From contig CAUYUJ010000237.1 in NCBI GenBank assembly GCA_963575745.1, positions 434,001-498,000 of the forward strand: 64,000 nucleotides of DNA, written 5' to 3'. The position numbers and the translations under genes are program-made. The notes below the pieces were generated by a model that was not told the origin of the DNA, made no database searches, and saw nothing but the letters and a program-made list of their open reading frames with translations. Source of the stretch: Prorocentrum cordatum (lineage: Eukaryota). Positions 13,560 through 58,472 of the stretch are shown here, piece by piece (the stretch's first letter is position 1; each line of letters starts with the position of its first letter).

Positions 13560-13861
13560 AACAGGTGGCGCGGGTAGGCGGCGACTCGACGCTGGAGGTG
13601 GCAGGCCAGATCGATTTGGCGGCGAAGCTCTATGCGAGGCAGGAGCTCGGCGGTTGCATGGATGCGCTGAAGGAGCCCGTGGGGCTGCCCGAGGAGTGGG
13701 TGATCATTGCGCCCGGGGAGTTGTTCTGCGTGGTCGGCTTCGCCGTGGCCCGCGGCCGGGAGTGGCGCAGGGGCTGATCATCTACGTCGGCGACAACCAG
13801 ACGGTCCAGAGGTGGGTCGAGAGCCGCCGTCCGAATAACAGGATGGCCTGGCACTTGGTGA
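13560..13861 (+). pseudogene. DIRS-type RNase H, N-terminal part
   Basis: 'VGGDSTL', 'GELFCVV', 'IIYVGDNQTVQRW..RMAWHLV'. Cut by LINE-A. Confidence 0.75.
13847..13861 (+). repeat. 15-bp target-site duplication of LINE-A, left copy
   Basis: CCTGGCACTTGGTGA is identical at 13847-13861 and 21002-21016. Confidence 0.95.
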
Positions 13862-13862
13862 G

Positions 13863-13898
13863 TCCGTAGCCATTTGGGCTCAAGCCGTTCTGGCTCAG
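13863..13898 (+). other. Retroposed dinoflagellate spliced leader plus one SL relic
   Basis: TCCGTAGCCATTTGGGCTCAAG matches DinoSL at 21/22 (13863-13884). It is followed by CCGTTCTGGCTCAG, a degenerate CCATTTTGGCTCAAG relic. Confidence 0.93.
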
Positions 13899-13977
13899 AT
13901 TTTTCTGAGTTTGGTCGTGCAAACTCCAGGGCGGCGCTGCACGATCGAGCCTTTTTGGCTTCGTTCCAGCCTATTGT

Positions 13978-15197
13978 GTGCAGGTGGCGCCTGCAGTCCG
14001 TATGTCAGCACCAGCATGCCGCAATGGCAGTGGCGGCAATGGCGGCAATGGCGGCCAATCCTCGGCTACCTGGCGCTGCGTGTGCTGCGGGCGCAGCCGC
14101 AACAAGCTCCCCTGGTTCTGGTGCAAGCACTGCGGCGCGCAGTTGCAGAAGCCAGCTGGGCCGCAGTCTCGTGATGGCGCGTGGGCATATCCTGGCGATG
14201 GTCTTTGCCTTTTTGGTAAAGGGCCTGGTCAGCCCCCCCTGCGCCCAGGGCTCCTCAAGCAAGGATCTTCGCCTGTGCGAGCTACGGCCGCCCCGACCAT
14301 CCCGCCCGACGCCAAGCTCGAGGACATCCAGGCCACCATTGACACGCTCACCAAAGTTGGGGATCGAGTCGGGGCGGCCCACTACAGCAATATCCTCGAG
14401 CAGCGCAAGGCGAACCATGCCGCAGCAGGCAAGCAGCAGCCCCTCCAGCAGCGGGTCAACTCAGCCTTCCAGTCGGCGCGGAACCTGGAGCGCAAGCTGG
14501 AGAAGGCGGCGGCGCATTTCGAGCGACTGGAGTCTCAGTTGGCTGAGCAGAATGAATGGGTTTCGAAGGTCAACGAGGAGCTGGTGGCCGCGGAGTCCGA
14601 ACACACCCAGCTGGTCCGCGCGCTTCGCGCCTGCACCTGCGGGCCGCCGGGCCCCACTTCGCCTGCTCCAGCAAACGCGGTCACCATCTCGATTGGTGAC
14701 ATCTTGGAGAGCAAGTCTGATTCGCCCATCTCCATGGGAAGTTTCGGCCAGCTCGACGACGGCATCTACGAGCTGGACCAGCGCACTCGAGACGAAGCAG
14801 AGCAGCGCATGGAACAGCTACAGGCCGACATCAAGGCGGCTATTGGGGTGCTTTTTGGAAACTCCTCGGCCAAGATCAAGGCGGCGAAGGAGGGGCGCCA
14901 GGCCTTAGTCGGACGCCTTCAGAAGAAAACCGCGCAAGGTCGACGGTGCTGAAGGTGATCGGGGGGCCTGCATCTGGAGGCGCCGCAGCAGCCGCTCCTG
15001 CACCTGAGGGCTCGCAGTCCCCTTCTGAGCCTGCCCAGCCTGTGCCTGCCGCTACCGCGCCTGCCCCTTCAGAAGGTCCCGCGTCTTCCTCGGTTCAGGA
15101 AACGGCGCGTCGGGCCACTCGGGCGGCGGCGGCCGCCATTTTGCAGCCGGGGGAAGCCCCCCCCCCCTCCCCCTCAGGTGGCGCAGCCGCAGCCTGA
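13978..15197 (+). pseudogene. LINE-A ORF1 (RanBP2-like zinc finger plus coiled coil), frameshifted near 14930-14950; start uncertain
   Basis: 'WRCVCCGRSRNKLPWFWCKHCG'; heptad-rich 'ARNLERKLEKAAAHFERLESQL'. The tail in 14946-15197 resembles the LINE-B ORF1 C-terminus. Confidence 0.8.
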
Positions 15198-15445
15198 TGG
15201 GGGGGGGTGCCCCGCCACGCCTATCTTTGGTAGACTGGACGGGCTTAGCCAGCCCGCCACCTCCCAATCCTGGCCCAGGCTCACCTGGGTAAAGTTGCGT
15301 GCTCGGAGGGTCCTGATTTGTTTGTCGCCTACCCAGGCCCAGGCCCAGGAGCGTCAGGACCACCCCCATCCTCCTCGCCTCCGCCCTCTCCCCCCCCCCC
15401 CCCCTCCCTCCCCCCCGCCTCAGGAAGAGCTCGGACATTGCCCTG

Positions 15446-18400
15446 ATGTTTGCGACTGCCAATGTCTCAGGGCGGGGGTCTGGCCAACAGTTTTTGCTAA
15501 CTACCTCCGCGCATGTCGTCTGCATGCAGGAGCACCACCTTCTGGCAGGGGAACGTTTGGAGCAAGCCAGCGCCCGGGCTTCTCGCAACAAGTGGCGTGC
15601 CATATGGGGCCCAGCGGCTCCAGGGGATGGCATCGGGTCCAAGGGAGGTGTCGCGATATTCGTCCGAGACTTCCTGGGCTTGCACCATGGCATCGCCTCC
15701 CCGTCGCCGTCACGGGTCATTTCAGGAGTTGTGGGGTTCTTGGTGGTCTGGATGTTTCGGCTACGTCGATATACCTCAGAGATGTTACTGGCATCGACCA
15801 GTACAACCAGCAGTTATTGTCGGACGCAGGGCAGACCCCCACGGGCTCCTGCCTCCCTTGGATTATCTGTGGGGAGTTCAATCCCCCCCGTGCGATTTAC
15901 ACGAGTTTGGATTTCCTAAGCAGTGCGACGGTGGAGTGATTTTCTATCCTGCATGTTCTGGGACGTGTCAAACTACGGGCGATATGAAGATGAACGATGA
16001 TTTTGTGGCTAGCCCTGGCCTTAGCTCTGCCATCCAATCCCTGGAACTCGTGTCGGATGGAGATCTCTCGCCGCACTGGCCTGTGCAGATCACTCTGTTT
16101 CCTCAAATCGGACAGCTCCGTGCGATGACGCTTGCTCGGCCGCGGCGCATTCCGCCCGTTCGCCAGATCGGGCCGCGTGGCCCACCGCCTGACTACCAGC
16201 CAGCTAAGGACTTGCTGCAGGATGCGCTCAGGGCTGCTCGGGCGGGTAAGGGGAAGGAATCCAAGGCCCCCCTCGCGAACGCCTATCGTGCCTGGGCGGA
16301 TCTGGCGGAAGCTGAAGCTGCGGAGTTGGCGGGGGTCGAGTTCAAGGCCCCTGGGGCCCGTGGGGCCCCCGACATCGCCTGGCAACCTGTCTATTTTCGG
16401 GGCGTCACACCGCCCCGCGAGCCCGAGCTGGTCTCTGCCAGGTGGCTCCGGAAAGCCATTTTAATGCTCGAGGCCAGCATCCAGCATCCACTCCTGGCGG
16501 GCCTCTCTTTCGCCATTTCCTACGGCTTCGCTGTGCCGCCAACCATTGTGAAGCGCCAAGGTGAACATCGGCACCTGTTCCTCACGCCCCTGAGTTGCAC
16601 CACCCCTCGTCGCTCCACCCCTGGCCTGAGGGCCGCGGATGCAGGATCAGTGAGTTGCGGGGGCGCGTTGGGGATGTTTTGTACCTGGCGGAGCAGGCGG
16701 CCCGAAATGAAGCTACCCAAGGGTGGCGGACTTGGCTCCTCAAGGGAATCGACAAAGGTGGGCGTAATGTGAATTTGGTCACCATGGCCCCCACTCCCTG
16801 GCAGCCAAGCACGGTCTTGGCGGCGGGAGGAAGAAGTGTTAGTGATCCCCAGAGTGTGCTGGCTGCTGAGGCCAGCAAGTATCATTCTTTCTGGGGGGCT
16901 TCGCCTACCCCGCCGGCCCCGACGGCCGACTTCCTGCCCGCCCCCGAGCTTCCTCTCCTCGAGCTGGACGCTGCTCGGAAAATCTGCCTCCGACAAAAGG
17001 AGAGGTCGGCTGTTGCTACCGATGGATTTCACCTTCGTCATCTGGCGAGGTTGCGTGACGAGGGCCTGCAGTGCCTTCTGGACCTGTTCTTGGTTATGTA
17101 AACCTCGGGATTGTTGCCCGACCAGTTGGCGATTGTTATCATGTTTCTGATCCCTAAGGTTCCCGTAGGTGTGCGTCCCATCGTGATTTTCACGGCGCCC
17201 CACCGTGTTTAGGCTAAGGCGCGAAGGCCTATTGCCGATGCTTGGGAAGCCGCGCGCGCGCGGCCCTATTCTGCGGCAGGCTCTTTCACTGGTGCAGGGG
17301 ACACGGTCTGGAGACAACTGCTCAATGCTGAAGCTGGAGTTTCGTCTTCCAAAATCGCAGTCAATCTGCTGTGGGAATTCTTCAAGTACTATGAAGTCCT
17401 TCCTCTGCATCAGTTGCAGCAGAGATGTTGTCGGCACGAATTTCCGCTCGCTGTCAGCCGTCTGGCCATCAGTTCATATTCATCTGTGCGACACCTCACG
17501 TTCCAGACTATGGTGTCGAGTGGGGTTTTCGCAACTAATGGAGTTGTGGCAGGGCGCAGCATGGCCACGACGGTGATCCGCGTCAATGCCCTCGACCCCC
17601 TGGACGCTATATCCTGGGGCCATGTTGTCGATTGCAAGCTCTACATTGATGATGGCAGTATTTCGGCCGTTGGGGATTTCCAGGAGGTGGTGGGGGGAGT
17701 CGCAGCAGGTGCACGGCAATTACAGAAGGCGTCGATTGCGATCGGCGCGCCCCCCTCGGCCGACAAGGCCACCCTGATTTGTAGCAGTCGAGGGGCGGGG
17801 CTTCAAATCCAACAAAACCTTGGTCTGGAACTCACGAGGCCCCCCGTGCCTTCTGGGGTCAATATTGGGGTTGACGACGCGCAGGGTCGACCCCAGAGGG
17901 TCCTGGGGCGAAGCTCCAAGGCCAAAAAGAGAAGGGCGGCTGGGGGGGCCAGGGCCGTCAGGCCCGGGCGTCTCTCGAGGCGCCTTTCCCGTCGTCGCCT
18001 TCGTCGGCTCTGGGTGGCGGGCCCCTTCCCTGTGCCCAGTTATGGGTCTGAGCGTTTCGGGCTTTCCTCTTCGGGGCTCTTGAAGCTCAGGCCTTCCCTC
18101 GGGCGGCTGCTCAAGCCGTCCGCGGGCCAGCGTTCCCAGTCCACTTTGATGCTTTTAGAGGGGGGGGGGCCCACGTGGTTGACCCAGGTCTCGTGTGTTA
18201 CCAGGTGGCATAGGGAGGTCTGGGTCTCTGCCAGTGCGCTCCACCCCGCGGCGGTGCCTATCCCCCTGCTGCGTCGCTATTGGCAGGCGGTCTGGGAACT
18301 CCCCATGCCCATCTGGAGGGGTGTCTCTGGCCCCCATTTCGGCTGTCAGATTAACCTTAACCGCCTGCAGGACGATCTGGGCTCGGTGCACGAGCTTTTT

Positions 18401-20003
18401 TACACGTCCCCCGCCCTCCTCAGGACTCATCTTCGCCCGGCCGTCCTCAGGAGATTGGAGAGAGACATTGCAGCTGAGCACCACTTCGTCCACGAGCGAC
18501 TCTCCTTCGATGTGGTTTCTGCTTGTCTTCCCCCCTCAAAGTTTACCCCCTGCAGAAGGGGGCGCTGCGGGCATGCTCTTGTGATGGTATCTGGACTCGC
18601 ATGGCTGCGCGTAGTCGAGGCTATCAGTTCCCTGCTGTATGTGAGTTATGCGGTGGCCCCTTCTTTCTGACTCCGTCTTTCACCGTCTTTGGAGTTGCCC
18701 AGCTCTTGAGAGAGAAAGGAGGGAGTTGGTCGAGGAGGAGTTGTTAAATGGGGTAAAGGATTATGTCTGTTCGTCCGATAAGCTGTTCGTGGTCACCCGC
18801 GTTGCCCTGCCGCGCCCTGGAGACCGTTTCCCGCCCCCCTGTGCACATGGACGAAGACGCTTTCGAGGTCACCTGGTACGTGCCCCCTCCCCTGCCAGAG
18901 TTTTCAGGTGTTGTGTCTGTTGGCGGTTCTTGTTCTCGTAGGATTATAAAAGAGTTGTCGAGGGCCTCCTGGTCTGTGGTTCTGTATTCTAATGAGCGTG
19001 TTAGGCTCGCTTCGGTGTCTGGCCCTGTCTGGCCCCGCATGCCCCAGACGCCCCAGGCTGGAGAGTGTTGCGCCCCCTTAGCCGCTATTCAACTCATTGA
19101 AGGTCCGTCGGAGTTGGTTTCGGATTGCCTGAATGTGGTTTTGTCGTTTGCTCTGGAATGGCAGTCGCAGCTTTCCGACAAAATGGCCTGCGCGGGCCAC
19201 CTTTTGCAAGCCAGGGCTTCCGAAGGCCTTCAGCATTTGTTGAGGGTCTCCCATGTCAAGTCGCGCCAGTCCCTTGACGACCCTGACATTACCTCGGAGT
19301 TGGGTTTCTGGCGTGCTGGCAACGGCGATGCGGGTCGTCTTGCCGAAATTGCCTTGGGCCTTCATCCCACGGACCCATATTTTGAGCGCGAGCTCCAGGT
19401 CGATTTGACATGCGCCAGGGTCTATGATGTTCTGGCGATGAGTTTGTTTCCCCGATTTCAGCCCCTGCGTGAATTCGGTGAGGTGGAATATATTCAGCCG
19501 CCTAGGTCTCAGCGTGTTCTTGGCCATGAGCACAAGTGGCTCCCTCTCGGGACCTTCTGGCGTTGTTCCAGCTGTCTGAAGGTCGTCCGCCGTAAGTGGC
19601 CGTGTAAGCCTCTTCCCAGTGTTTGTTCTGGTCCAGAGAGCTGCCCACCGCCGACATAGCTGAACATGGCCATCGCTGTATCGCTCTGGATTGCAGCGAT
19701 CAGGCCATTTTCCTTATTTGTATTTCATGTAAGTGCTATTCATCCCACGGGCGTTTTAAAGGCCTGTTGGGAAAATGCGCCACCAAACCCACGACGTTTG
19801 GGAAGAGAGTTTGGTCGGCTGTTTCTCGAGGGTTGCATCCGAAGCATACGTCTATGGACCTGGCCCAGGGGCACCGAGCCCGCCCTCGTCGAGGTGCCGC
19901 CTCCCTGTCCGACTCGGAGGAGGAAGAGAGGAGGCGCGAGCTCGGTAGGTCGCTGGTCAAAACGGCTACCCGTCTTGACGCCGACTCTGGCTCCTCGGAC
20001 TGA
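15446..20003 (+). pseudogene. LINE-A ORF2: AP endonuclease, RT, RNase H and Cys/His motifs, with multiple frameshifts and stops
   Basis: APE 'FATANV', 'CMQEHH', 'GGVAIFVR', 'ICGEFN', 'LSPHWPV'. RT 'TDGF', 'GVVAGRSMAT', 'LYIDDG'. RNase H 'QTPQAGE', 'SDCLNVV', 'HVKS'. Ends LDADSGSSD*. Confidence 0.9.
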
Positions 20004-21001
20004 CGTCCTACGGGTGTCCAGGGACATACTTCTCGTGTTGGCCCACCTGGGGGGAGAGGCTTGCCACCGTCTTGGCGCTCTTTGCACCAGGGGTAGGCGA
20101 GCCCATTTCCCCCCCTCGTTTGAGGTTCAGGTGTCTAGTTGCATTATACTATGTAGTGGTAGGGCCAGGCGCGGGGTTTTAAAGACACCCCGACCGCTAC
20201 CTCTCCCTTCTCAGTCTCGTCTGCCTGCTAGTCATTGTCCCTTGCGTTGGGGCGGAAGGCGGCGGGTCCTTGGTCGCTCTGCCCAGTTGGTCCTTGGCCG
20301 TATCTGGAGGGCCCGCCAAGGGGGCGCTGGCTCAGGGGATGAGTCAGGCCCACACCAGGGGCAAACCAGGGGCCGTCGCGTCCGCCCACCAGGGTTAGGT
20401 ACACCTGTTTTGTTTTCCTGGCTGTCGTCCTGGCGTCGCCCTGTTTTTGTTTCAGTGAGTAAATGAGGTTGTGCGGAGTGCATGACTTCACCTTGGAATG
20501 TTCGGTCTTGCCCGTGGCAGTAAAGTTCAAGCTGGGAGGGGGGAGACGGCCATCCCCCGCGTCCTAGCACTTGCCCAGTGCTTGCAGTGATGTCGTGCGG
20601 TTAGCACGAGCATGCGTGGTCTTGTCTCTAGCTAGTGGCGCACGGCCCGATGCGACTGACCCTCAGGGCAGGCATCCGTGCGCATGCCCCACGTTTGGGG
20701 CGAGGCCTGCCGCCGCCCTGGCGCTCCCTGCACCTGGGGTGGCAGACCTCGTCGTCCTTGTGTGGGTGGTCGACTTCTTGTCTCAGTTTCTTGGTGGCGG
20801 CCCTGCCACCGTGCGCACTGGCGCCCCCCCCACTCCCCCTTGCAGCAAGGCCTGTTTGGTGTGGGCGGGGTTCGGAGACGCGGTCTCCCGCGTCTCCCAG
20901 ACCTCTTGCTTCCTAAAGCGTTGCAGGTTCGGTCCAAGAACAGAGGGGGTCGCCTCCAGCCCTCTGTTCGTCAAGTTTGAAGAGGTTGAAATGGACAAAA
21001 A

Positions 21002-21016
21002 CCTGGCACTTGGTGA
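21002..21016 (+). repeat. 15-bp target-site duplication of LINE-A, right copy
   Basis: Identical to 13847-13861 and directly follows the A-tail. Confidence 0.95.
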
Positions 21017-21125
21017 AGCTCTTCAATTTCGTGGAGGTCAAGTACCACTGCCGCATCCTGGCGGCGCCGCGCATCAGGGCGCGCAGCAACGAGATGGCGG
21101 ACATGACCACCAGGGCCGACGAGGC
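21017..21125 (+). pseudogene. DIRS-type RNase H, C-terminal part
   Basis: Resumes after the TSD as 'WHLV|KLFNFVEVKYHCRILA..SNEMADMTTR', containing the N..AD motif. Confidence 0.8.
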
Positions 21126-24225: not shown

Positions 24226-25139
24226 CGGGCCCCTCCCCCACCAGGAAACGAAACCAGGGCCTCGGCAATTTTGTTTTGCATTTTTTTGAATTATTGATTG
24301 GTGGAGACAAATGCGGTCGTCGCCGCGCGCCTGCCCTGATTTAGCAATTTCGGTCGACGGACGCACGCGAAGCGCGCGAGTTTTTTTTTTTAATCATAAT
24401 TGTTTCTGCTGCGTGCCGCGTTTTCATGGCGCACGTGCCACGCCTTGCCCTTTCAGACCCAATCGCTCGCACTAGTGCGTGGACCGCATGCAGGCCGCAG
24501 TCCACGCGCGCTAACGCGGCGCAACGGCGCATCGCAACGATGTTGGGCACAATGGCATTTTTACCGCAGCGTCGCGAATTTGATAGCCACCCCGCGCGGG
24601 TGATGCCGAACGCATCCGTGTCCCACCGCGTGTGCGCCGCCGGAGCTAATTTTCCAACTGCGGTCGCGAATTGCATCGCGGGCGCGTGCCAGGCGCCCTC
24701 GACGTGTCACGTAGGCCCCTGCATTGGGCGTCCACGCATCATGTCGGGAACGTGCAAGTTTTTTACTCTCGCGCAACGCAGCGCTTTCGCCGAAAGCGAC
24801 AGCCAGGTTTCTCCGGCAGGAAGACCGGCGGGGAGGGGTGACATGGGAGGCGCGCGCGAATGAGGGGGGGAGGGGCAATGCGGCGAGGAGGAGGAGGATG
24901 GAGGCGGAAGGCGGATGAAACGCGGAAAGGGGGGGGGGGGAGGGGCAACGAGGGTGGTTGAGGGGGGCCGGGGGCGCTCAGGGCCCCTCTTGGGGGCCCT
25001 CTCGGAGCCGCCCTGGGGCTCTCTACGAGCCTCGGAAGGCGCCGAAAGGGCCCCAAGATAACCCCATGAGAGCCCACAGAGAGCCCTGAGAGGGGCCCTG
25101 AGAGTTCCCCTCTGCTGTCCAGATGGCGGACCCTGCCGC

Positions 25140-25290
25140 TGAGGTCTGCGGTGGAGATCCCGATGGGGCCGCGAGCCTTTTGATGGGTGCGCTCAAATGG
25201 AGCGGCGTCGCCATGTGGACCCCGCCACTGGCGTCTCCGGTGGGGCCCCCCCTATGCGGCCACGGAGCGATGCGTTGGGTGTGCCGAAAC
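25140..25290 (-). repeat. Degenerate units of the 101-bp satellite family, reverse orientation
   Basis: 'ccatgtggaccccgccactggcgtctccggtggggcccccctatgcggccacg' is the reverse complement of the satellite core. Confidence 0.65.
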
Positions 25291-26984
25291 AGAGAAATTA
25301 TATAGGGAGGGGCAGGAACAGAAGAAAGGGAGAAGAGGGAGGTAGGAGGGCGACGACGACGACGGGAGAGGGGAAGAGAAACGATGGGGCAGGAAGAAGG
25401 GGGGGGCGAGTTTGTAGGGCGAGGTGGGGGGGGGAGGGGAGGGCGCGGGAAGGGTGGAAGGAGGGCCGGGGAGGGGGGAAGCCAGGGAAAAAGGGGAGGG
25501 ATGGGGGAGGGGGGGGGGGGGGGGGGCGAGTTAGTAGGAAGGAGGAAGAAAGGGTGATGAAGGGTGAGAGTTGGAATATGAGGGAAAACCGCGAACCAGA
25601 GTTGCAACCAGCAGCCCAAACTTGTCCGCAGCAGGGCCCAGATTTCTCCGCGACGCCCTTGCCGGGCTCCCACGAGTGCCACCTGGGGGCCCATGACGCC
25701 GCCGAGAACGCCCACGAGGCCTTGCAAGTTTTGCACGAAAGCCCCCAAGGCATATTGGACATCCCCACGCAAAAAAAGCGAGACCTGCACCAACGCCCAA
25801 AAGGCTGGCGACCCACAGCGCAGGCATGGCGGCGGGGCTTGCCACAGGCATCGGAATACCAAAGCCCTCGCACCCCCCCGAATCTCCCTTGGGGACTTCC
25901 TGGGGCGAGCTCCACGCAGCGTTCGCCCCGGCCGAACGACGCCCTCCCTTCGAAGGGTTGGGCCAGGCAAGCTGAAGTCGGGGATGCCCGCCACCATGTC
26001 CCCTCGCCCTCTTCCTCCGTCGTCTTCCTCCTCCTCTTCCTCTTGCCAATCTCCCACCCCCTCCTCTCCCCCCCCCCCCCGCCGCGCCGCCGTGCCCCCC
26101 CCCCGCCCCCTTCGCCGCGTGAAGCTACTGCGCCCCCGTCGAGACCAGGAATCGCCCGGCGAACGCGGCGCGACCTCGTGGATGCACCAGACTGTCACCT
26201 GGACCGTCGGACAAAATTGCCGCGGGGTCCAGGGGGGGGCGCATCCTGACTGTGAAATTAGAATGAATCCGCCCCGCAGCGAAAGCCAGGGGCGATTTTG
26301 TCGCGACGTGTTCTTGGGTCGGTTTGATTTGTTTGTCGCGGCCGTCTTTTTTTTATTGTGCCGCCTTTCTTTTTGTCGGCCCATTTTGTCGGGCTGACTG
26401 GTTGTCGGGGTTGTTTTTTTTTGCCGGGGGGGTTTGGTTGTTCGTCGGCAAACGATGTCGGGGCGATCGTTTTTTGCCGGCTGGGCGCCGCCCACAGCGC
26501 ATGGATGCATGGAGGCAGACGGGTCGAATGGCAGCAAGGGCGCACGCACGCAACGCAGAAGGAGAACAATAAGGAACGCGAGCCAGGGCAATGCAAGAAC
26601 AGCGCGGGGGGGATGCGAGGGGGGCGGCAAGAGCAGATGATGACGAAATGAGAAAGGCATTTGCTTGTAGAGTACGTGCCCCGACGGATCCACGCGCAGC
26701 GGGCGCCGAAGAGATCGCGGCACCTTTGGTCTCCAATCTGCAACCTCGATGCCGGCGCCGCAAGCGTGCGCAGGATGCTCTGCGGGCACAGTGCTCATGA
26801 AGTCCGCCCCGCGCGTGGTGCAGCAAGCAGGCGACGTAACTAAACTCCGTCGCGCCGAGACGCGGGCGGCCACGCATGTCAGGAAACTCAAAGAGCCCCT
26901 CGCGGTCGCCCACGGGGCTTCGCAAGGGCCTATTAGGACCTTGACTAAAATAAGCTTGGCGAAATACCCAACCACATGCAGCTG

Positions 26985-27320
26985 CGGGTGCCATGTGGGG
27001 CCACGATTGCGTGGGGGGTGCGCCAAGATGGGGCGGCGCCGCCATGTGGGCCGCGCCACTAGGGCCTCCGGTGGAACTCCATGCGGGGCCGCGAACCGAG
27101 CGAAGGGTGCGCCCAAATTGGGCGCAGCCGCCATGTGGACCCTGCCACTGGGGCCGTCAGTGGAGCTCCATGTGGGGCCACGAACCGTGCGAGGGGTGCG
27201 CCCGCATGGGCGGCACCGCCGTGGGGCCATGCCACTGGGGCCTTCGGTGGACCTCCATGTGGGGCCACGAAGCGCGTGAGGGGCACGCCCAAATGAGGCG
27301 GCGCCGCCACGTGGACCTCG
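26985..27320 (-). repeat. About 3-4 units of the 101-bp satellite family, reverse orientation
   Basis: Repeated 'gccactggggcc(t/g)tc(g/a)gtgga.ctccatgtggggccacgaa'. Confidence 0.85.
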
Positions 27321-30840: not shown

Positions 30841-30865
30841 AGCCGCGGCTGGCGTTCTCCACGAT

Positions 30866-34102: not shown

Positions 34103-34930
34103 CACGTCCATTTTGGCACGCCCGTCGCACGGTTCGCGACCCCATGGGGCTCGGCCGAAGGCCCCGATGGTAGAGCTCGCATGCGCCCGCCCGGCCCGCT
34201 GCATGTCCATGTCGGCGCGCACCCCAGACGCTTCGTGGCCCCATGCTGAGCTCCACCGGAGGCCCCAGTGGCAATGTCCACGCGCCCGCCCTGCCCGCTG
34301 CATGTCCGCTCCGGCGCGCCCCCCAGGCGGTTCGTGGCCCCATAGGGGGCACCACCGGAGGTCCCAGTAGCAGAGTTCACATGCGCCCACCCCGCCCGCC
34401 GCATGTCCATTTCGGCACGCCCTTCACACTCTTTGTGGCCCCATGGGGACGTCCACTAAATACCGCAGAGGCAAAGACCGCGTGCGCCTGCCCGCCCGCC
34501 GCAGGTCCATTTCGGCGCACCCCGCACGCGGTTCGCGGCCCCACAGGGAGCTCCACTGGAGGCCCCAGAGGCAAAGTCCACATGTGCACACCCCGCCCAC
34601 CGCGCGTCCATTTCGGAACACCCCTCACACCGTTCGTGGCCCCATAAGGATTCCCACCGACGGCCCCATATGCAAAGTCTACATGCGCCTGCCCCGCCCA
34701 CCGCATGTCCATGTCGGCACGCACCCTTCACACACTTCGCGCCCCCACTGGGGGCCCCACCGAATGCCCCAGGGCAAAGTCCACATTCGGCCCCCCGCCC
34801 ATCGCATGTCATGTCGGAAGACCTCACGCGGTTGAAGGTCTCATAGGGAGCTGGGCCGAAGGCCCCAGAGGCAAATTCTACACGCGCTCGCCCCTCCCGC
34901 GAGGACAACCTGCTCGCGCGGGCGCCGCGC
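34103..34930 (+). repeat. 101-bp satellite, about 8 copies
   Basis: Same unit and orientation as 3517-4695. Confidence 0.93.
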
Positions 34931-37750: not shown

Positions 37751-38508
37751 GCTTCAGGATCATAAAAGGTGAGAGGGTCTCAGGCGAAACGCTCGTCCCG
37801 CCCTACGACACGTCTGGGGGTTGCGACAGGGAGGCGTTATTCACAAGGACAAGCGGTGGACAAGTAGGGGGAGGAGGATGAGGAGGAATCTCGCCCAGGA
37901 CGAAAGATCCTGCCGACGCCGTCGAGATAGTCGAGCGTAACCCCTACGGTGTGCCGGAAACGCCAGGCGGCCCGATCTTGCACGGCAGAAGGGTCATGTG
38001 GGGTTCTCCGCGCTTGTTGGATTGGTTTGGGTGCGTGGAAGATGGATCGAGGAGGGGATGCCTCCTGTCCCTCTATGCCATCTGTAGATGTAACCGCCTC
38101 CCTTGCGGTATGTAGGTAATCAAATCGGCTTTGCCAGCGATGTTCTACGTGAGTATTTCATGCTGCCTTCTGGTATGCGACAGCCTCACGGCAGCAACTG
38201 AGCCTTGCGGCGGCTTGTCTTGGAAACGTGGCGTCTGTCCACCCTGCATGTCTCCATTATTTCCTCCTTGTGTTCCCTCTAGAATGCCTATGTGCACTTG
38301 CCTTGGCTCTGGGCTCTCCATGTTGAGGGTCCCGATGGGAATTGCCGATTAGCTCATACATATATGTGTTTAGATGTTTCTTCCTCCTTCTCCTCCTCCT
38401 CCTCCTCCAGTCCTTTCTCCTTGAAATGTCTCCTCCCTTTCGCACAAGTCCAGTTGCTCCTCCCATACAGTACAGTTGTCCGCATACAGTACAGCATCTT
38501 TCGCCGCC

Positions 38509-39623: not shown

Positions 39624-40199
39624 GACCTACGGCGGCCTAGGACCTACGCCTTGCAACCACCGGCAGCGCCCGAGCTCCATTAACACGCGCTATGTATTCT
39701 GGATTTTGGGGCGCGGGGATTGCGGGCAAAGCTACCGACACCTCCGCCGTTACGGAATACAAACGCCCGTATGTATGTTCAGACTCAGTTGTCCGACCCG
39801 GGTCTTCATTTTCAGTTCGCTCTAGCAGATCTCTCGTGCCCAGCCCCCAATTTCCCGCTCCAGTCCTCCAGTCCGAGCGCCCCGAGTTACCTACACCCGC
39901 AGTTTTGGACATTATCGCGCGCACGAGCGTGGGCAAAACTACCCTCGAGCAGGGCGCAGCGGATGTATTATTACCTTATTCAGCACGGTGTTCCCTTATC
40001 GCTGACGGTAAAATATTCGCTTCCCTTACATGTGCGCTGTTTCCGACGACAGGTGTTGGCTCCAAGGTTTTGCGCGGACGTGCCGATCTACACCGATCAG
40101 GTCATCATCGCGCACAGGTCACCCCAAGTTCGACCTCTTCGACTCCAGGTCCGTATTCCGACATCCAACCTCTAGCATCAAACCTTTCACTTCCACCTC

Positions 40200-40737
40200 A
40201 CCCCATCGACCTCCAGCCTCCAACCTACGATGTTCCACCTCCACCTCTACCTTTTGAACTCCAGCATCCACCATCTCGGTACTCCGTCGTCAGTTTTCTC
40301 GGCATTCGAGTCCCGAGCTTTACTTCCACCACTGCCAGTGGATCCCCAGCCGTCAGCAGCACAGCACTACAACCTCCACTTTCAAGCAGCAGACTTTGCA
40401 CCTCCACCTATCGACCTCTGGCTTCCAGCACCTCCACCTTCGACCTTCAGATTCCAATAGCCACCTATCCACCTCCACCTCTACTAACGTCCACCAATTC
40501 AGTATTCCGACCACAGTTTTTTGGCATTCGAGTCTTCACCTCCACCACAGTTGGTGGACCCCCAGCCTCCAGCAGCGCAGCACTCCGACCTCCACACTCA
40601 AGCAGCAGACTTTGCTCCTCCACCTATTGACCTTCAGCTTCCACCACCGCCACCTATCGACCCTCAGCCTCCAGCAGCCCCTTCTCCACCTCCACCTCTA
40701 CTTTCGACCTCCAGCGTTCACCAAGTCAGTATTCCGT
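40200..40737. repeat. C-rich tandem repeat, about 225-bp unit; the third unit continues at 47881
   Basis: 'ggcattcgagtc' at 40301, 40523 and 47908 (equivalent to about 40750 once LINE-B is removed). Confidence 0.85.
40723..40737 (+). repeat. 15-bp target-site duplication of LINE-B, left copy; its last 5 nt overlap the SL
   Basis: AAGTCAGTATTCCGT is identical at 40723-40737 and 47881-47895. Confidence 0.95.
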
Positions 40738-40760
40738 AGCCGTTTTGCGCTCAAGCCATT
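40733..40760 (+). other. Retroposed dinoflagellate spliced leader plus the start of a possible relic
   Basis: TCCGTAGCCGTTTTGCGCTCAAG (one substitution and one insertion relative to DinoSL, 40733-40755), followed by CCATT. Confidence 0.88.
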
Positions 40761-40860
40761 GAGCGTTGCAGGTGCAGGATTCAAAACGGCACTTCGCGCC
40801 TGCGAGTCAATCAGCTTCGGAGAGGGCCGCACCTTCACAGTTCATAATCATTTCGCCGCC

Positions 40861-42135
40861 ATGGGGAAGGGCGGCTTCGGCAAGCGCGGCCCTGGTGGTC
40901 AGTATGACAAGGGCGGCGGCAAGGGCGGCAAGAGCATCCCCTCGGCGGCCGTCCTCGAGCACGAGATCGCGCTGTTCGACAGTGGTGGCACGCCTCTTCC
41001 TCCTTGGGCTGCTCGGGCTCCAGGGGTTCAGCCTGATGGTCCTCCCGCCCTCTGGACATGCTCGGCGTGCGGCTGCAGGAAGAACGAGATGCGCTGGTCG
41101 CGCTGCAAGCATTGTGGCTCTCAGTGGACCCCGTTCCAGCCATGCGCGCCCACTTCCTTCGGCACGCCTGGGGGAGTCTGGTCTGCTGGCTTCAGCAGCA
41201 ACCTGCCGTACTCCCCCTTTGCTGCTGCTCAAGGGCCACCAGGCTCCTTCGCGCCAGGCGACCATGGTGGCGGCAAGGGTGGCAAGTCGCCAGGTGGTCC
41301 AACCAAGCCAGAGACACCTCTTTCTCGTGAAGAGCACGCGTCTTTGGCGGAACTGCCGGCTAAGGCTGGAGACGCTCTGGGAGCGGCTAAGCATCGTGAG
41401 CTGGCCAAGCCTCCACCTGTGGCCAAGGAGCCCACCCTGCAGCACCAGGTTTCCATGGCCCACAGCAAGCTGCGAGGCCTCGAGAGGAAGTTGCAGGGCG
41501 CGGTTCAGAGGTTCGAGGAGTGGTCGGTGCAGATGGTGGAGCGGCGTGCTTTGGTCACCAAGTTCACTGAGGAGTGTGAGCAGGCCGACGGTGAGCATCG
41601 TCGACTGGTGGCCGCACTTCATGCTCAGACGTCGGCGGCCGACTTGCAGAAGGTGCCAGAGGACAAGGTCGTGCCTTGTTCGCTGTCGTCAATCATGGAC
41701 GGGACCTTCACGGACAAGCTGGTCATTGACCCCTCGGAGCTGCTTGGAGGCGTCGAGGATTTCGAGCTCTCGGAGGCCGACAAGGAGGAGCTCGAGAAGA
41801 GGGGCAACCAGCTGCCAGAAGGCATCCAAAAGTTGGCACAGCGGCTGTTCGCGCAGGCCTCCGAGACTGCCAAGAAGATCCAGGAGGCACACAAGGAGCA
41901 TCTCGGACGACTTGCCAAGAAGAGGAAGACTGACGAAGGTGCTGCCCCTGGCGCTGATGGAGGTGGAGATGCTGAGTCTGCCGCAGACGTCGCCGCCACT
42001 GGTCCAGCGGCAGCAGCAGCGCAGCTTCCAGAGGTTGATGCTGAAGCTACCGCGTCTGCAGCTCTACGTCAGCGTGCCGCCAAGATCATTCAGCATGGGC
42101 AGCCTGAACAAGACCCCCCCCCTGCTGCCGCGTGA
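40861..42135 (+). CDS. LINE-B ORF1, 424 aa: Gly/Lys-rich N-terminus, RanBP2-like zinc finger, coiled coil
   Basis: First ATG after the SL, in tttcgccgccATGG context; 'WTCSACGCRKNEMRWSRCKHCG'; 'HSKLRGLERKLQGAVQRFEEW'; homologous to LINE-A ORF1. Confidence 0.85.
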   Translation: MGKGGFGKRGPGGQYDKGGGKGGKSIPSAAVLEHEIALFDSGGTPLPPWAARAPGVQPDGPPALWTCSACGCRKNEMRWSRCKHCGSQWTPFQPCAPTSFGTPGGVWSAGFSSNLPYSPFAAAQGPPGSFAPGDHGGGKGGKSPGGPTKPETPLSREEHASLAELPAKAGDALGAAKHRELAKPPPVAKEPTLQHQVSMAHSKLRGLERKLQGAVQRFEEWSVQMVERRALVTKFTEECEQADGEHRRLVAALHAQTSAADLQKVPEDKVVPCSLSSIMDGTFTDKLVIDPSELLGGVEDFELSEADKEELEKRGNQLPEGIQKLAQRLFAQASETAKKIQEAHKEHLGRLAKKRKTDEGAAPGADGGGDAESAADVAATGPAAAAAQLPEVDAEATASAALRQRAAKIIQHGQPEQDPPPAAA

Positions 42136-43019
42136 GCATCAGCAGGGGGGCCTACATCGTGAACGCGTTCAATCCAGCGGCACGCTCACTTGCCCAGCCT
42201 GGCACATGTTCTCTCCGTTCCCCTCGGCAGGGGACTTTAATGCTCTGGGCCTCGGCCTTGCACCTTGGGGCGGAGACGAGAGTTGCCAAGGCTGGCAAGC
42301 AGGGCCCGCACCCGCTGGAGCTGCTGTCGACGCTCGCCCTCGTGGGTGTCATCAGCCTGCTGCTGAAGGAGTAGGGCTGGCTTTTTCTTTCGGAGTCGAG
42401 GATCCTGAGGTCTCAGGTCCTCTTGCACTGCATCCTGGATCCCTGGAGTGTATCTGGGGTTGTCTGGGTTTGCCGTCTTGCCGTGGGAACCTCCAGGAAT
42501 CGTGCGTTGAAACTGGAGGGTCCCACGAGCAGTACCCACTTTTTGCTCGAAGCAGCTTGGAATCTCGGTTCAGGACGCTCCTCCAGCCTCTGGGGGCACC
42601 CGTTTTCGGGCCTGGTGAGCTTTGTGCCACCAGGGCCACATTTGGCTCGGCCTCGGTGTGCAGTCGCAGCTCTTTTGCCTTTCGGCGTTCCCGCTGGACC
42701 CCTCCCCACGTGAAGCGACCGTCTGCCTTTAAGAGATCGCACTCGTCGCTCAGTGGAGCGGTCAAGCACACCCTTTGGAGGGCCAAGCGGGTGCTAGCCT
42801 CAGGTTGTGCCAGCTTGGCGCGTGCTGTTCACAGTGCTGCCTCGTGCGAGGCGCATTTTTTCGGGTTTGCCAACCCGTGTGAGGAATATCCTGTGCTCGT
42901 CGATTTGCAGCCGAGCAGTCCTGTCGAGTTTTTCAGCGGCCCCTCGGACCCTTCGGTGAGTTTCGTCGCCTCGGGCTCCCCTGAGGCCTTTGTTGGCCAC
43001 GGCTCGGCCCTTCTGGACA

Positions 43020-46000
43020 GTCTTGAGATTTGCACCCACACGGTTAATTGCAACCGATGGTCGACCATGAAGGAGCTCATGGCCAAGACTCCTGCGCACA
43101 TCATCCTATGCCAGGAGCACAGGATGCGAGGGGATGAAGACCTCTCACAAGCCTCGGCGTGGTGTGCTCGCCAAGGGTGGAAAGGCATCTTTACTGCGGC
43201 CCACGGGGCCGCCGCTGGTTCCACGTCGGCTGGCACTTGCATCCTTGTCAGAAACTTTCTCGGCCTTCATGAGCCCCCTGGGGGGGGGCGGTGGCTGCTG
43301 TTGGCAGAGCGACTGCTGGCATAGTGCACCTCCCGCGAGGTGATCGTTTCGCTCTCTGCTCTGTTTACCTCCATCACTCTGAAGGGTTGTCTGAGCGCAA
43401 TGTCGATCTCCTGGCCAGTATAGGGGAACGTATGTCTTCCCTTTCTCTTCCGTTCTGTATTGGAGGGGATTTCAACATGGTTCCAGGCACATTAGCCAGT
43501 TCGAAGTTCGCCGAGAAGTTGGTTGGGCTGCCTGTGGTGGCCGAGGGCCACACTCACTTTGGCGAGGGTCCCCCGTCCTCCCTGGACCACTTTGTGTTTT
43601 GGGGGGGGCTTGGGAAAACTGTCAAGAGCTGTGAGGTCGTCCTGGACACTACCTTGAGCCCCCACAGGCCGGTGCAAGTTGCGTGGCACGCTTCGTTTGG
43701 CAAGTTGAAAGGTCTTAGTTTCAGGAAGCCTCCTCCTCTCCCTGTCTCGGCTGTGGTGGGACCGCGTCCTGCTCCCCCCGACTGGAGTCTTGTGCGAGAG
43801 CTTGCTGACCAGGCCTCCCAATGTGTTGCTGCTGGTGATGCAAGGGGCGCATCGTCGCTTCTCTCGCCTTGCTATGCGGCCTGGGCTGACAAAGCCGAGG
43901 CTGAGCTTGTGCCAATTTTGGGACAGTCTGTCCCCTGTCTTGGTTCGAGATCCAAGGGCCCTCAGCTTGTGTGGAAGAAGCTGGTTGGTCGTGACCATGC
44001 TATTCGGGATCCTGAACATCATGCTGTGCGGTGGCTCAGCGTCCAATATCGGGCCCTAGCGTCGCTCCTGGATTCGAACCAAGGTGGCACTCCTCAGGCG
44101 AAGTCGCTGACGACGCTGCTACAGGAGCCTCCGCAGCAGGTTGAAGTTTCTGCTGCCCTTCGGCCTCTCTTTGAAGAGGTTGCCCGTGCTGTCGCCGAGC
44201 CTTGTCGGGATCTCATTGTGGGCAGGTGTTTCGACGCGGCGCTTCGGGACAAAATTGATGTTGCGGTCAGCAATGCTCAGTCAGCTGCCAAGAAGAGATC
44301 CCGTCAAAGCTGGCAAGCTTGGATTCGCGCTGGCCTTGACGAGGGAGCGAAAAGAGTTCACATGTTCACCAGGGACCCGTCACCTTGGAAGGCCACCACC
44401 ACCCTTTCTGCTGATGGCACCCTTGTGTCTGATCCCCTGGCGCTCTTGGCTTCGGAAGGTTTCAAGTTTGCCGCCTTCTGGGGCAAGGGCTCTGGAGCCT
44501 CTAGAGGCCCCCCGTCGCTTGGGCCGACGCTTCCGAGGGTTTCGGCCGACGAAATCAGGGAAGTCTCCAAGAAGTACAAGAGGGGTTCTGCGGTGGCCTA
44601 CGATGGCTTTAGTTGTCGTCACTTCCAGTACTTGTGTGATGATGCGTTGAACTCGCTCGCCGTCTTGTTTGAAGTTATGGAAGCGCTCGGCGAATTGCCC
44701 GAGCAGATTTCTGCCGTGCTGCTCGCTCTTCTCTCGAAGCCCACCGGTGGCTACAGGCCTATGGGGGTGTTCTGCTCCTGGCACAGGGTGTGGGGGAAGC
44801 TGCGGCGCCCCTTCGCCCTCGCCTGGGAGCAAGAGCACCCCCGTAGGTACTGGGCTGCTGGTGGGCATCGAGGTGCTGCCGACGTTGTTTGGAGGCAGTC
44901 TGTTCGGGCTGAGCACGGCACTGCGTCGAATGAGGTTTCGTGTAGTGTGTTCTACGATATGCTTAAGCACTACGAGACCATTGACCTTGCCAAGTTGATG
45001 TCCCAATGTCAGAGACACGGTTTCCCCTCCCCGATTGCGCGCCTTTGCATCTTTGCCTTTCGGCGTGGCCGTTTCCTGTCCCTGGGGGGCATCCTTTCGG
45101 GCCCCTTCTTTGTCGAGCGAGGTGTGGTGGCGGGCTGCAGCTTCGCCACCACCCTCATCAGGGTCTTTGCCCTCGACGCGTTCGACTCCATTCCCCTGTC
45201 CCCCAGATGTGATTTGGACATTTACATCGACGATTCGGGGATTTCTGCGACGGGCCCTCGTCACCGAGTTATTGCCTCTATTGTTGCCAGCTCGCAGGCC
45301 TTGCACACGGCAGTGACCGACATGCTTGGCTGCAGTTTCGCCCTGTCCAAAGTGTGCGCGGTCTCCTCTAATAGGGCGGTGGCCAGTGAGGTTGGCAAGC
45401 AGCTTGGCAGTCTGGCAGGTAGGATCGAGGATGTCACTGTCAACTTAGGTGTGGACTACACGGCGGGCAAGTCCATTCGAGCCTCAGGTCGGGCTAGTAA
45501 GCTCAAGTCGAGGCTGGCTACCATGTGCCGTCGAGCCAAGAGGCTCAAGAGGCTTTCGGGTGATCTTGGGAGAAAAACTCTGCGGGTGTTTTCCTCGGGC
45601 CCTCTTGCGGGAGGCTCCTACGGGGCTGACATTGTGGGTGTTTCTGACAATGATCTTTTATTGATGCGGAGGCAAGCCTTCTCGACTGTGCGGCCGTTTT
45701 CTCAGGGCAGGAGTCTCACTGCTTGCTGTATTTTAGCTGGAGATCCCACCTGGAGGGCGGCATGCGCGCCTGTGCTTAGGTGGGGAAAAGAAATATGGCT
45801 TGCTCAGACTAAGGTCTTCCCGCACTCCCTGGCCCTCAAGGGGCTTAGAGATTCTTGGAATGCCGTCTGGGGCCTTAGCAGGATCAGTTGGGGTCTCGTT
45901 GGGGGTCCTGTCTCTGCCCTCAGGCTTTGTCTGGTCAGGTTAGGGTGGCACATGGACAATTTCATGACCATTATTGATGACAGAGGGTACCACATCCCCC

Positions 46001-47761
46001 TCGGTGTGACCTCCCCTGCCCTCTTGTGTATTTTTTTGTCGGGAAGGTATGATCAGAGCTCTGGAGAGGGATCTGGGCGGCAAATGGGCGTCTGGAGGCC
46101 GCCTTTGCTTGGATGTCCCCCGTGCTGCTCTGGCGTCTAGCAAGTTCTCTCCCAGTGAAAAAGGTATGATTCGTGCTCTGGCGTGTAGCGCCATCTGGAC
46201 TCCTGATCGTGCCATTGCCTGTGGATATAGAGTTTGTTCTAAGTGCATCCATTGTGGCGAGGCAGACTCGCTGCACCATCGGCTGTGGGCCTGCCCGCAT
46301 GTGAGCGATCCGAGAGCGGAGCTTGCTAAGGACTGGATCATTGCTGCCGCCCGTGACACTGAGGCTGAGGACTACTCGGACCTCCTTTTCTGCTTCGGGG
46401 CTTTCGCCCATCCCGCCGATACCCTTCCGAGGCCGTGCCTCGAAGGCAATGTGGTGTTCCGCTGGCATCGTGATCTGCTCGAGGGCCCCGAAGGCTTCGA
46501 GGCTCCCCAGGAAGGTGCTGTCTGGGGGTCGCTGTTTCTCGACGGGTCTTGCAAGCGGCACATAATTCGGGAACTCAGCCGTGCGTCGTGGGCCATCACG
46601 ATGCACAATGACAGCGGGGATCTTTTATGTGAGGTTATGGGGCCTGTGTGGGCCCAATACCCTCAGACCCCGCAGGCTGGCGAATACTTAGCGCGTGGCA
46701 TGGCTGGTAATATGGCCAAGTACCCTTCCACCCTGTTCTCTGACTGTTTGAATGTGGTCAAGCATTCTAAGTTGCCTCCTGGCGATCGCCTCTCGGGTAA
46801 GAGGGTGTACAGTGGCATAATCATGGAAGCCAATGCTCGAGAAGGCACGTGCATTCAGGATATTGTTAAGGTTTCTGCTCACAAGGATTTAGATGAAGCT
46901 GGCATCGACCAGTTCGAAAGGTTTTGTCGCAAATGCAATAATGATGCGGACGCGGCGGCCAAAGCCGCGCTGTCGTTTCATGCGTCAGATATTAATGAGA
47001 GTGAAGATCTCAGCAAGAAGATTGACATTGCTAAAGCAGTGTGTCGACTAGGGGCCAAGCTTCTCTTAGAGTGGCCCCGACTGGATTTATCTGATGCCGA
47101 TTATATTCCGCCAGCCCCCAAGCCCAGGTTTTCCTGGGACAAGCCTGGGCACGACTGGGCCCCTTGGTCCGGTGTGTGGCGCTGTAGAGTTTGTTTGTTG
47201 GGTTCCAGGGGATCTGGCGTCCCTGATCCTGGCATATGCTCTGGCAGGTGCAAGCTTGATGACGGTGTGCTGGTGTCGCTGCGGCATCGTGTTTTGGCCT
47301 TCTCCTGCAGTGACGGTTCACATCTTTTTGTTTGCGTGAAATGCCGCTACCACAGCACAGGTGCTCGTGTGGACGGCCTAGGGAAGCTGTGTAAGGATCG
47401 GCCCTCCAGGAACGCCGAGTATTCTTGGAGGCACCTCTGTCGAGGAGTGCACCCGAACCCCAGGAAGCGAGCTGTGACGGTGAATACTCACCAGATCTGT
47501 GCCCTGTTTGGTTCTCAGGCCGAGGAGGCTCCCTCGTGCTGCAGGGCCGTGGAGGCCCCAGCTGGGAACCACATGGCGGAGGAGGAGGTGGTCCCCCCTT
47601 CCTCGGTCGAGCCTCCCCCCCCCTCGGAGGAGGAGGTCCGTCAGGCCTGTCAGGCCCGAGAGCTCAGCGTCTCCTCTCAGTCCCTCCGCCGTCTCCAAGC
47701 CGCTAGGAGTTGCGGTGAGGAAAGGAGGGACCTGGATGCTGACTCGGGTTCTTCTGACTAA
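43020..47761 (+). CDS. LINE-B ORF2: AP endonuclease, RT, zinc motif, RNase H and C-terminal Cys/His motifs; two frameshifts; true start probably further upstream
   Basis: APE 'HTVNCN', 'ILCQEHR', 'SVYL', 'GGDFNM', 'LDHFV', 'SPHRPV'. RT 'KPTGGYRP', 'DMLKHYETID', 'GVVAGCSFAT', 'YIDD'. Zinc motif 'CIHCGEADSLHHRLWAC'. RNase H 'LDGSC', 'QAGEY', 'SDCLNV', 'KVSAH', 'NNDAD'. Frameshifts lie at the G-run near 43280 and the T-run near 46031. Confidence 0.9.
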
Positions 47762-47880
47762 TTTTATCCTGCCACCCTTGTGGCTCACCTCCTTGCCTCA
47801 GCGGCATGGAGGACGCAGCAGCGATTTCCCAGCCGTCGCTGCTGACAGGAGAGGCTGTGCGGGCGTTGAGCTCAAAAAAA

Positions 47881-47895
47881 AAGTCAGTATTCCGT
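47881..47895 (+). repeat. 15-bp target-site duplication of LINE-B, right copy
   Basis: Identical to 40723-40737. Confidence 0.95.

Positions 47896-58427: not shown

Positions 58428-58472
<45 letters not shown>

Follow-up and report, generated by a model that had tools for sequence, protein, structure and literature searches.

What does it mean that a retrotransposon begins with the spliced leader of its host? This question is raised by a 64,000-nucleotide stretch of the genome of the dinoflagellate Prorocentrum cordatum (assembly GCA_963575745.1, contig CAUYUJ010000237.1, positions 434,001 to 498,000 of the forward strand), hereafter the window. Two long interspersed nuclear elements (LINEs) in this window, e1 (13862-21001) and e2 (40733-47880), carry at their 5' terminus a copy of the spliced leader used by dinoflagellates (DinoSL, or SL), published as DCCGUAGCCAUUUUGGCUCAAG (PMC7245778). 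An earlier, sequence-only reading of the window had proposed for both elements the layout target site duplication (TSD), DinoSL, two open reading frames (ORF1 and ORF2), short A run and second TSD. Sequence reading and scans confirmed this layout for e1 and e2, and the 15-bp length given for the TSDs held as well, with 15 of 15 identical positions at both elements. Each full-length copy is the DNA image of a mature host-style mRNA, made of the SL, a 5' untranslated region (UTR) of 93-117 nt, two ORFs and a short poly(A). Since the SL stands at the exact 5' terminus, inside the TSDs, and an A run closes the 3' end, the template is best described as an SL-capped polyadenylated mRNA. Our overall explanation, which we consider probable, is that an L1-like family is copied from an SL-trans-spliced polyadenylated mRNA, and that its 5' end would be defined by trans-splicing.

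The features of e1 are as follows (plus strand throughout).

13847-13861 (+): 5' TSD, CCTGGCACTTGGTGA, identical to the 15-mer at 21002-21016
13862 (+): extra untemplated G between TSD and SL; the base after the 3' TSD copy is A, not G
13863-13884 (+): integrated DinoSL copy, TCCGTAGCCATTTGGGCTCAAG, matching at 21 of 22 positions (T15 to G, at 13877)
13885-13898 (+): relic SL, CCGTTCTGGCTCAG, corresponding to SL positions 8-22, at an anchored edit distance of 3 to CCATTTTGGCTCAAG
13948-13960 (+): possible older SL remnant in the 5' UTR, AGCCTTTTTGGCT, 12/13 to SL positions 6-18; tentative
14002-14952 (+): ORF1, 316 codons, zinc knuckle at residue 24 followed by a probable coiled coil; 31% identity to e2 ORF1 (tblastn E 1e-23)
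15434-19859 (+): ORF2 remnant with at least five frame changes, located by tblastn with e2 pieces and full-length relatives
about 15434-16505 (+): APE part of ORF2 (tblastn)
16640-18475 (+): reverse transcriptase (RT) part of ORF2 (tblastn)
18538-19859 (+): CCHC and RNase H part of ORF2 (tblastn)
20997-21001 (+): tail of five A (sequence reading)
21002-21016 (+): 3' TSD, 15/15 to the 5' copy, followed by AGCTC and not by an SL

The corresponding features of e2 are given below (plus strand).

40723-40737 (+): 5' TSD, AAGTCAGTATTCCGT, identical to the 15-mer at 47881-47895; its last 5 nt are SL positions 1-5 (TCCGT)
40733-40755 (+): integrated DinoSL copy, TCCGTAGCCGTTTTGCGCTCAAG, with A10 to G (at 40742) and one inserted C (at 40748)
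40861-42135 (+): ORF1, 424 codons, zinc knuckle at residue 65 followed by a probable coiled coil (sequence reading and motif)
42206-47761 (+): ORF2 with two frame breaks, colinear with full-length relatives over about 43016-47506
43043-43674 (+): APE motifs QE, GGDFN and SPH (motif reading)
44746-45234 (+): RT motifs GGYRPMG (44746) and YIDD (45223) (motif reading)
46244-46294 (+): CCHC knuckle (motif reading)
46538-46963 (+): RNase H motifs DGS, AGE, SD and ADAAAK (motif reading)
47874-47880 (+): A tail of 7-9 A, reaching 47882 if the first As of the TSD are counted
47881-47895 (+): 3' TSD, 15/15 to the 5' copy, followed by TTTCAG and not by an SL

Junctions of the two elements

Both strands of the window were scanned for the SL 21-mer, allowing up to four edits. 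Two SL-like sites were recovered, heading e1 and e2, for an expectation of 0.00 in shuffled sequence (up to three mismatches). Both sites lie on the coding strand of their element, at most 2 nt from the TSD-defined 5' end. Together with a third element recovered from a metagenomic contig (L136, described below), the SL was found exactly at the 5' end in all three elements whose 5' end is visible, two of them in the window. A genome-encoded DinoSL at the 5' end of the retroposed unit, by which SL-tagged retrocopies are recognized, was thus present in 3 of 3 elements. The distance from the SL to ORF1 is 117 nt in e1, 105 nt in e2 and 93 nt in L136.

Each window element shows one peculiarity at its 5' junction. 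The extra G of e1 at position 13862 would fit reverse transcription of the cap. The 5-nt overlap between TSD and SL in e2 fits microhomology joining, or else corresponds to a 5' truncation by 5 nt. Extra 5' G residues and microhomology at the 5' junction are both known for L1.

An SL next to a LINE could also result from site-specific insertion into SL RNA genes, or beside SL relics already present in the genome. The SLACS/CZAR/CRE and NeSL elements are LINEs that insert into SL genes with a restriction-like endonuclease, and they share with e1 and e2 the association of a LINE with SL sequence. In the elements described here, however, the SL is part of the element RNA: it lies inside the TSDs, and what comes after the 3' copy of the TSD is AGCTC in e1 and TTTCAG in e2. 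Because no SL follows these 3' copies, the empty sites held no SL; the sequence-only reading had named SL-containing empty sites as one observation that would speak against it, and this was not borne out. Moreover, the flanks are unrelated to each other, consisting of a non-repeat stretch (e1), a C-rich 81-bp tandem repeat (e2) and (GA)n (L136), and the endonuclease is of the APE type and not restriction-like. Neither of the two marks of the SLACS/CZAR/CRE and NeSL group was therefore found. The earlier statement that e1 and e2 are not insertions into SL RNA genes is upheld by the position of the SL within the TSDs and by the lack of the GT-intron seen at SL sites in metagenomic contigs (L129, L130, L135 and L141). 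Insertion into SL genes is ruled out by the junction sequences and the APE-type endonuclease, and we give the whole site-specific scenario next to no probability.

The same reading had assigned two unrelated targets to e1 and e2. The C-rich tandem repeat was recovered on both sides of e2 (window 40258-40730 and 47895-48753). The DIRS RNase H proposed as the e1 target found no match in Pfam (E<=5), in the protein atlas or in the PDB (phmmer). No exact empty site for e2 was present in the contigs of four public DNA runs, where joints skipping 7.5-7.9 kb connect repeat flanks and are ambiguous.

The element family and a third copy

No similarity between e1 and e2 was detected by blastn. By tblastn the two elements are colinear, with 31% amino-acid identity in ORF1, 31-40% in ORF2 segments and 36% over 613 residues in the RT block. 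Assignment of e2 on its own was difficult: Pfam gave a weak RVT_1 alone (E 3e-5, below cut-off) and nothing significant for ORF1, the APE part or the C-terminal part, and individual pieces of e2 found no match in the PDB by phmmer. When 1.84 billion representatives were searched in full with HMMER, 5175 relatives were retrieved at E<=1e-3, 501 of them at E<=1e-30. Identity to e2 was at most 41% among the 150 relatives listed of the 5175. In twelve full-length relatives, Pfam detected Exo_endo_phos (7), RVT_1 (7), zf-RVT (4) and RNase_H (2), some of these matches being below cut-offs, and nothing in three. A family profile built from 37 members matched human L1 ORF2p (E 8e-18) and R2 (1.4e-9) in the PDB, as well as ExoIII, L1 endonucleases and retroviral RNase H domains. 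The earlier APE-RT-RNase H assignment is thus supported by the relatives and by the family profile; Pfam on the window copies themselves shows the weak RVT_1 only.

ORF2 accordingly encodes an APE endonuclease, an RT, a CCHC knuckle and an RNase H, with catalytic-looking motifs kept in e2. In ORF1 of both elements, a W-x-C-x2-C-x4-N-x6-C-x2-C knuckle comes first and a charged part with a heptad-like pattern after it. We take this knuckle to be RanBP2-like, and ORF1 probably carries a RanBP2-type zinc finger and, behind it, a coiled coil. An RT, an APE endonuclease and TSDs with a 3' A tail were all found, as in LINEs. As judged from these sequences, e1 and e2 are classified as APE-type non-long-terminal-repeat retrotransposons, L1-like in a broad sense, from an old and very diverse family of dinoflagellate-type genomes.

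The two window copies differ in preservation. With at least five frame changes, e1 is a decayed copy. The two frame breaks in e2 ORF2 both fall in homopolymers, a G9 run at about 43278-43286 and a T7 run at about 46025-46031. Contigs from the four public DNA runs aligned to e2 as many copies of 85-100% identity (462 contigs in run X1). Relative to e2, these copies lack 2 nt at 43280 (runs X2 and X3) and 1 nt at 46031 (runs X1, X2 and X3). As copies without the homopolymer indels keep one frame, intact-frame members of the e2 subfamily exist. The breaks in e2 itself may be either mutations or homopolymer assembly errors.

Further SL-headed copies were looked for with the exact SL 21-mer, and 20 distinct sites turned up in bacterial metagenome-assembled genomes (MAGs; GTDB). 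The contigs that hold them are evidently misbinned eukaryotic DNA. Eight of the sites are followed by GT, and six of the eight resemble SL RNA genes (L129, L130 twice, L135 twice and L141). The other twelve have a non-GT downstream sequence; five of these have at least 2.5 kb downstream, and one, L136, is a complete LINE. L136 is an independent, intact element on a contig of 9096 nt and 70% GC that was misbinned in a bacterial MAG. Its features are the following.

117-137: exact SL 21-mer, preceded by a (GA)n microsatellite and one C
231-1340: ORF1, with Pfam Zn_ribbon_RanBP (E 1.4e-7)
ORF2: open over 2536 codons, with Exo_endo_phos, RVT_1 and RNase_H above Pfam cut-offs
9000-9005: tail of six A, followed by (GA)n again

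Since the A6 tail lies inside the same (GA)n microsatellite, a TSD cannot be defined for L136. The element matches the family profile with E 3.4e-43 and is 25% identical to e2 in the RT. Given this value and the 31-36% identity between e1 and e2, the SL head was not inherited from one recent master copy. The SL-headed LINE layout thus extends beyond the P. cordatum genome.

The MAGs behind ten SL-bearing loci were also searched with the profile. Matches were obtained in two of them, L136 itself (G001) and L146 (G003), and none in the eight others. The profile found no further relatives in viral contigs or in genome contigs. A profile scan of metagenomes gave at least four weak relative loci (L120-L123), none of which reaches a 5' end. 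L146 (contig C78 of G003, 7111 nt) is of separate interest: a single open frame of 2369 codons from the same LINE family (profile E 6.9e-30) takes up its full length, the ends of the element being absent, and the MAG that holds it also contains an SL-headed contig, L128. Intact, very long ORF2s seem common in this family.

Origin of the 5' end

The structure of the e1 5' end bears on whether an integrated SL can be used again. Directly after its full SL, e1 carries a relic SL truncated at an internal AG; its edit distance of 3 was reached by 1 of 40000 random window positions. A full SL followed by a relic starting at position 8 is described as the signature of recycled dinoflagellate cDNAs (PMC6050394, PMC3942190). 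This arrangement indicates that an SL was present in the parent of e1, that transcription came from upstream of that SL, and that the AG at SL positions 6-7 then served as acceptor for a new one. At the sequence level, it shows that at least one SL-bearing copy, in the e1 lineage, served as a source. The piece at 13948-13960 could be an older e1 5' end; 14 of 5000 equally long random windows had a local alignment score at least as high, which is suggestive. The earlier description of the integrated SL as followed by CC, and not by a GT donor, is right as to the missing intron, and the CC of e1 turned out to be the start of its relic SL.

The same observations bear on a second scenario, in which the RT switched template onto SL RNA and the SL never belonged to the LINE mRNA. 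LINE reverse transcriptases are known to switch templates, which is a non-specific point in its favor. However, the 22-nt exon is present alone and never with the SL RNA intron, which can be compared at L129, L130, L135 and L141. The distance from the junction to ORF1 is also similar (93-117 nt) in three diverged elements, and the canonical e1 relic cut at AG 6-7 is a signature of splicing. Template switching therefore appears very improbable, and the SL-trans-spliced, polyadenylated mRNA that had been proposed as the transposition intermediate is well supported by the SL inside the TSDs, the A tails, the lack of an SL-gene intron and the same head on L136.

Under the explanation that we prefer, an SL-trans-spliced polyadenylated mRNA is copied end to end by target-primed reverse transcription, the APE-type LINE inserting the full copy at a 15-bp staggered cut (e1, e2) or inside one microsatellite (L136). 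In the e1 lineage, an SL-bearing parent was transcribed from upstream and trans-spliced at its own AG 6-7, giving a new SL followed by the 15-nt relic. Host trans-splicing would in this way define and cap the 5' end of the family out of read-through transcripts, and copies landing in any sense-transcribed region could become sources. If the AG at SL positions 21-22 acted as acceptor, the same 5' end would be regenerated without a trace. The sequence-only reading had offered both AGs of the integrated SL as acceptors and had called the elements self-regenerating. The use of AG 6-7 in the e1 lineage agrees with this, and the SL plus relic of e1 records one such round; that round nevertheless left the 5' end longer by a relic instead of restoring it as it was, and e2 and L136 have no significant relic.

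That host trans-splicing, and not an internal promoter or a ribozyme, defines and caps the 5' end seems to us about evenly balanced. It is supported by the short UTRs and by the lack of an Rfam ribozyme: a scan of 13000-48500 at E<=1 detected no hepatitis delta virus (HDV)-like ribozyme at the 5' ends and one weak microRNA-model match elsewhere, and a divergent ribozyme outside the Rfam models would escape such a scan. The family may then depend on trans-splicing and have no promoter of its own. A more far-reaching version is held more tentatively, and we would sooner doubt it than adopt it: the family would be promoterless, trans-splicing would excise and cap its RNA, the SL would be a portable acceptor and perhaps a TTTT-type core promoter, and the same enzymes would be the engine of SL-tagged retrogenes.

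Several points weigh against a 5' end made by trans-splicing. The sample of 5' ends consists of only three elements (e1, e2 and L136), from two organisms and three deep lineages, and no RNA run is among the public sequencing runs that contain e2. There could be a small internal promoter within a UTR of about 100 nt, and the SL might act as a promoter element rather than as an acceptor. SL relicts have been related to promoter position in retrogenes (Song et al. 2017, PMC5585692), and in two Symbiodinium genomes the functions enriched in DinoSL-tagged genes are reported not to overlap with those enriched in RT genes (preprint 10.1101/783902). Finally, the best relic candidate in e2 is not significant (edit distance 6, reached by 1646 of 40000 random positions), and the L136 UTR contains no significant SL relic. 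Were AG 6-7 the usual acceptor, relics should accumulate; thus splicing takes place at AG 21-22 or at a native acceptor, or else SL-bearing copies mostly do not become sources. The absence of relics in e2 and L136 fits traceless splicing at AG 21-22 or a native acceptor of a master copy.

The last of these possibilities leads to the strongest rival explanation, in which the SL is a passive mark. Every nuclear mRNA would receive an SL, master copies would have their own promoter or native acceptor, SL-headed daughters would usually be dead ends, and the SL would have no role. This account agrees with our preferred explanation on everything shown and differs from it only in the part that we infer. 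The lack of a significant relic in e2 and L136 speaks for it, as do the universal trans-splicing stated for dinoflagellates (PMC7245778, PMC5585692, PMC6050394) and the transposon transcripts of Hydra, which carry the SL with no special dependence claimed in the available text (PMC12220107). The SL plus relic of e1, which makes an SL-bearing copy a source, argues against it, and so do the short UTRs (93-117 nt) and the lack of a detected ribozyme. Altogether, we consider the passive mark rather unlikely.

Related systems and other spliced-leader sites

The closest precedent is provided by recycled dinoflagellate retrogenes with relic SLs (Slamovits and Keeling 2008, as described in PMC6050394 and PMC3942190; Song et al. 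2017, PMC5585692), and SL relics on retrogenes are reported in several papers (PMC5585692, PMC6050394, PMC12014239, PMC7245778). As in those retrogenes, the elements are genomic copies of an SL-capped mRNA, and e1 shows the canonical full SL plus relic from position 8. They differ in that the retrotransposon's own mRNA was recycled, with clean TSDs and poly(A), a situation that the available parts of those papers do not describe. What is new is thus SL-tagged retroposition applied to the retrotransposon itself, SL-tagged retrogenes being already known. For the machinery behind the retrogenes, LINEs were suggested, human L1 serving as the parallel (Song et al. 2017, PMC5585692), and LTR/copia elements were favored later (Song et al. 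2018, PMC6050394); the gene ontology (GO) term 'RNA-dependent DNA replication' showed enrichment in both bouts of retroposition (PMC5585692).

SymbioLINE (de Mendoza et al. 2018, PMC5890265) resembles the present family as described: these are dinoflagellate LINEs with two ORFs, the second encoding endonuclease and RT, and their lineages include many that are old and some that are active. By the same description, SymbioLINE ORF1 carries a DNMT, whereas ORF1 here carries the RanBP2-type finger, and the terms 'spliced leader' and 'DinoSL' have 0 occurrences in the main text of that paper. Human LINE-1 (ORF2p, 8uw3 and 8sxt), the best PDB match, shares APE, RT and a C-terminal Cys-rich part, two ORFs, and target-primed reverse transcription with TSD and poly(A). 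Unlike LINE-1, the elements described here have an RNase H, a zinc finger in ORF1 instead of the RRM/CTD, no long 5' UTR promoter, A tails of 5-9 and target sites that are not T/A-rich.

Other LINEs also define their 5' end by processing a longer co-transcript, namely R2 and L1Tc/ingi, and the L1Tc host has universal SL trans-splicing as well. L1Tc/ingi elements are described with a Pr77 promoter and an HDV-like ribozyme, L1Tc transcripts being reported as unspliced and as ribozyme-cut (PMC1874656, PMC3185411, PMC3383444). Here, in contrast, no ribozyme was found with Rfam and the 5' end is the host SL. In Hydra, about 30% of the Iso-Seq reads from transposable elements (TEs) carry an SL (PMC12220107), so that transposon RNAs use host SL trans-splicing there too; this is an RNA-level effect across TE classes, and the available text of that study reports no integrated SL at the DNA 5' end of a LINE. 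A full-text literature search found no LINE whose genomic 5' end is DinoSL; it covered few subscription journals, excluded supplements and is no proof of novelty.

These comparisons suggest a wider meaning. Host trans-splicing would be a third route by which LINEs obtain a 5' end, beside the internal promoter (L1, jockey) and the self-cleaving ribozyme (R2, L1Tc). Dinoflagellate genomes are full of retrogenes tagged with relic SLs, and an APE-type LINE copying its own SL-capped poly(A) mRNA from end to end, with clean TSDs, has the activity needed to make them. Because the machinery tags copies of itself, such a LINE is suggested as the retrogene engine; if this is true, these enzymes would be behind thousands of SL-tagged dinoflagellate retrogenes.

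Some other SL sites in MAG contigs deserve description. L134, on the minus strand, is a textbook case of a retrocopy recycled more than once: directly behind its full SL stand two relics of 15 nt, both perfect (CCATTTTGGCTCAAG each). L131 (8982-9040, minus strand) contains a lone 21-nt SL between two copies of a 19-nt sequence, TTTTGCTTGCAGGCGTGAG, with no poly(A); an SL-only insertion with an apparent target duplication is hard to fit to ordinary 3'-primed retroposition. Four of the twelve non-GT SL-headed retrocopies stand directly after a microsatellite, L124, L127, L136 and L138, with (TG)n, (CAT)n, (GA)n and (GACA)n, respectively. Together with the position of e2 in an 81-bp tandem repeat, this may point to a preference for simple repeats on the part of the integrating endonuclease.

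IMG/VR, too, contains the exact DinoSL 21-mer, in 119 stretches whose contigs are filed there as viral (L001-L119, for example L009-L013, L020, L024 and L051-L061); none of these stretches matched the LINE family by tblastn at E<=1e-5. Most are AT-rich (16-26% GC) contigs of giant-virus MAGs with several SL copies each, and a conserved AT-rich motif, for example TTTTTATTTTTAAATATAAATTTTA or ...TTTTACTAAACCA, stands before every SL. At 106 of 120 distinct sites, an ORF of at least 100 codons starting with ATG lies within 300 nt downstream (median 50 nt). Among the 30 longest SL-associated ORFs scanned, 18 had no match and 8 had DUF4116 repeats, which does not establish a viral nature. These SLs, which look genome-encoded and placed at gene 5' ends, could come from large dinoflagellate DNA viruses that mimic the leader or from a misbinned AT-rich, SL-using eukaryote, and the literature search returned no paper describing SL-headed genes in giant-virus-like contigs. 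One IMG/VR contig of 5319 nt, L067, in reverse orientation starts exactly with DinoSL, and the ORF behind it has a picorna-like RdRP_1 domain (E 4.9e-7), so that the host leader heads a sequence resembling an RNA virus. This case is probably known, as DinoSL in a positive-strand single-stranded RNA virus genome of Symbiodinium is mentioned in PMC9651163.

The window contains several other repeats. Positions 3516-4692 are occupied by a tandem repeat whose period is about 101 bp (score 1342), and the repeat returns 30 kb away as a second array at 34106-34900. A related 89-bp array at 26991-27317, by eye an apparent reverse complement of the 101-bp repeat, is located inside a minus-strand open frame of 1032 codons (25023-28121) with no Pfam match. 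Finally, (ACT)n-type microsatellites extend over 58360-60026 and 60854-61801, with 555 copies of ACT and then about 157 copies of ACTACT.

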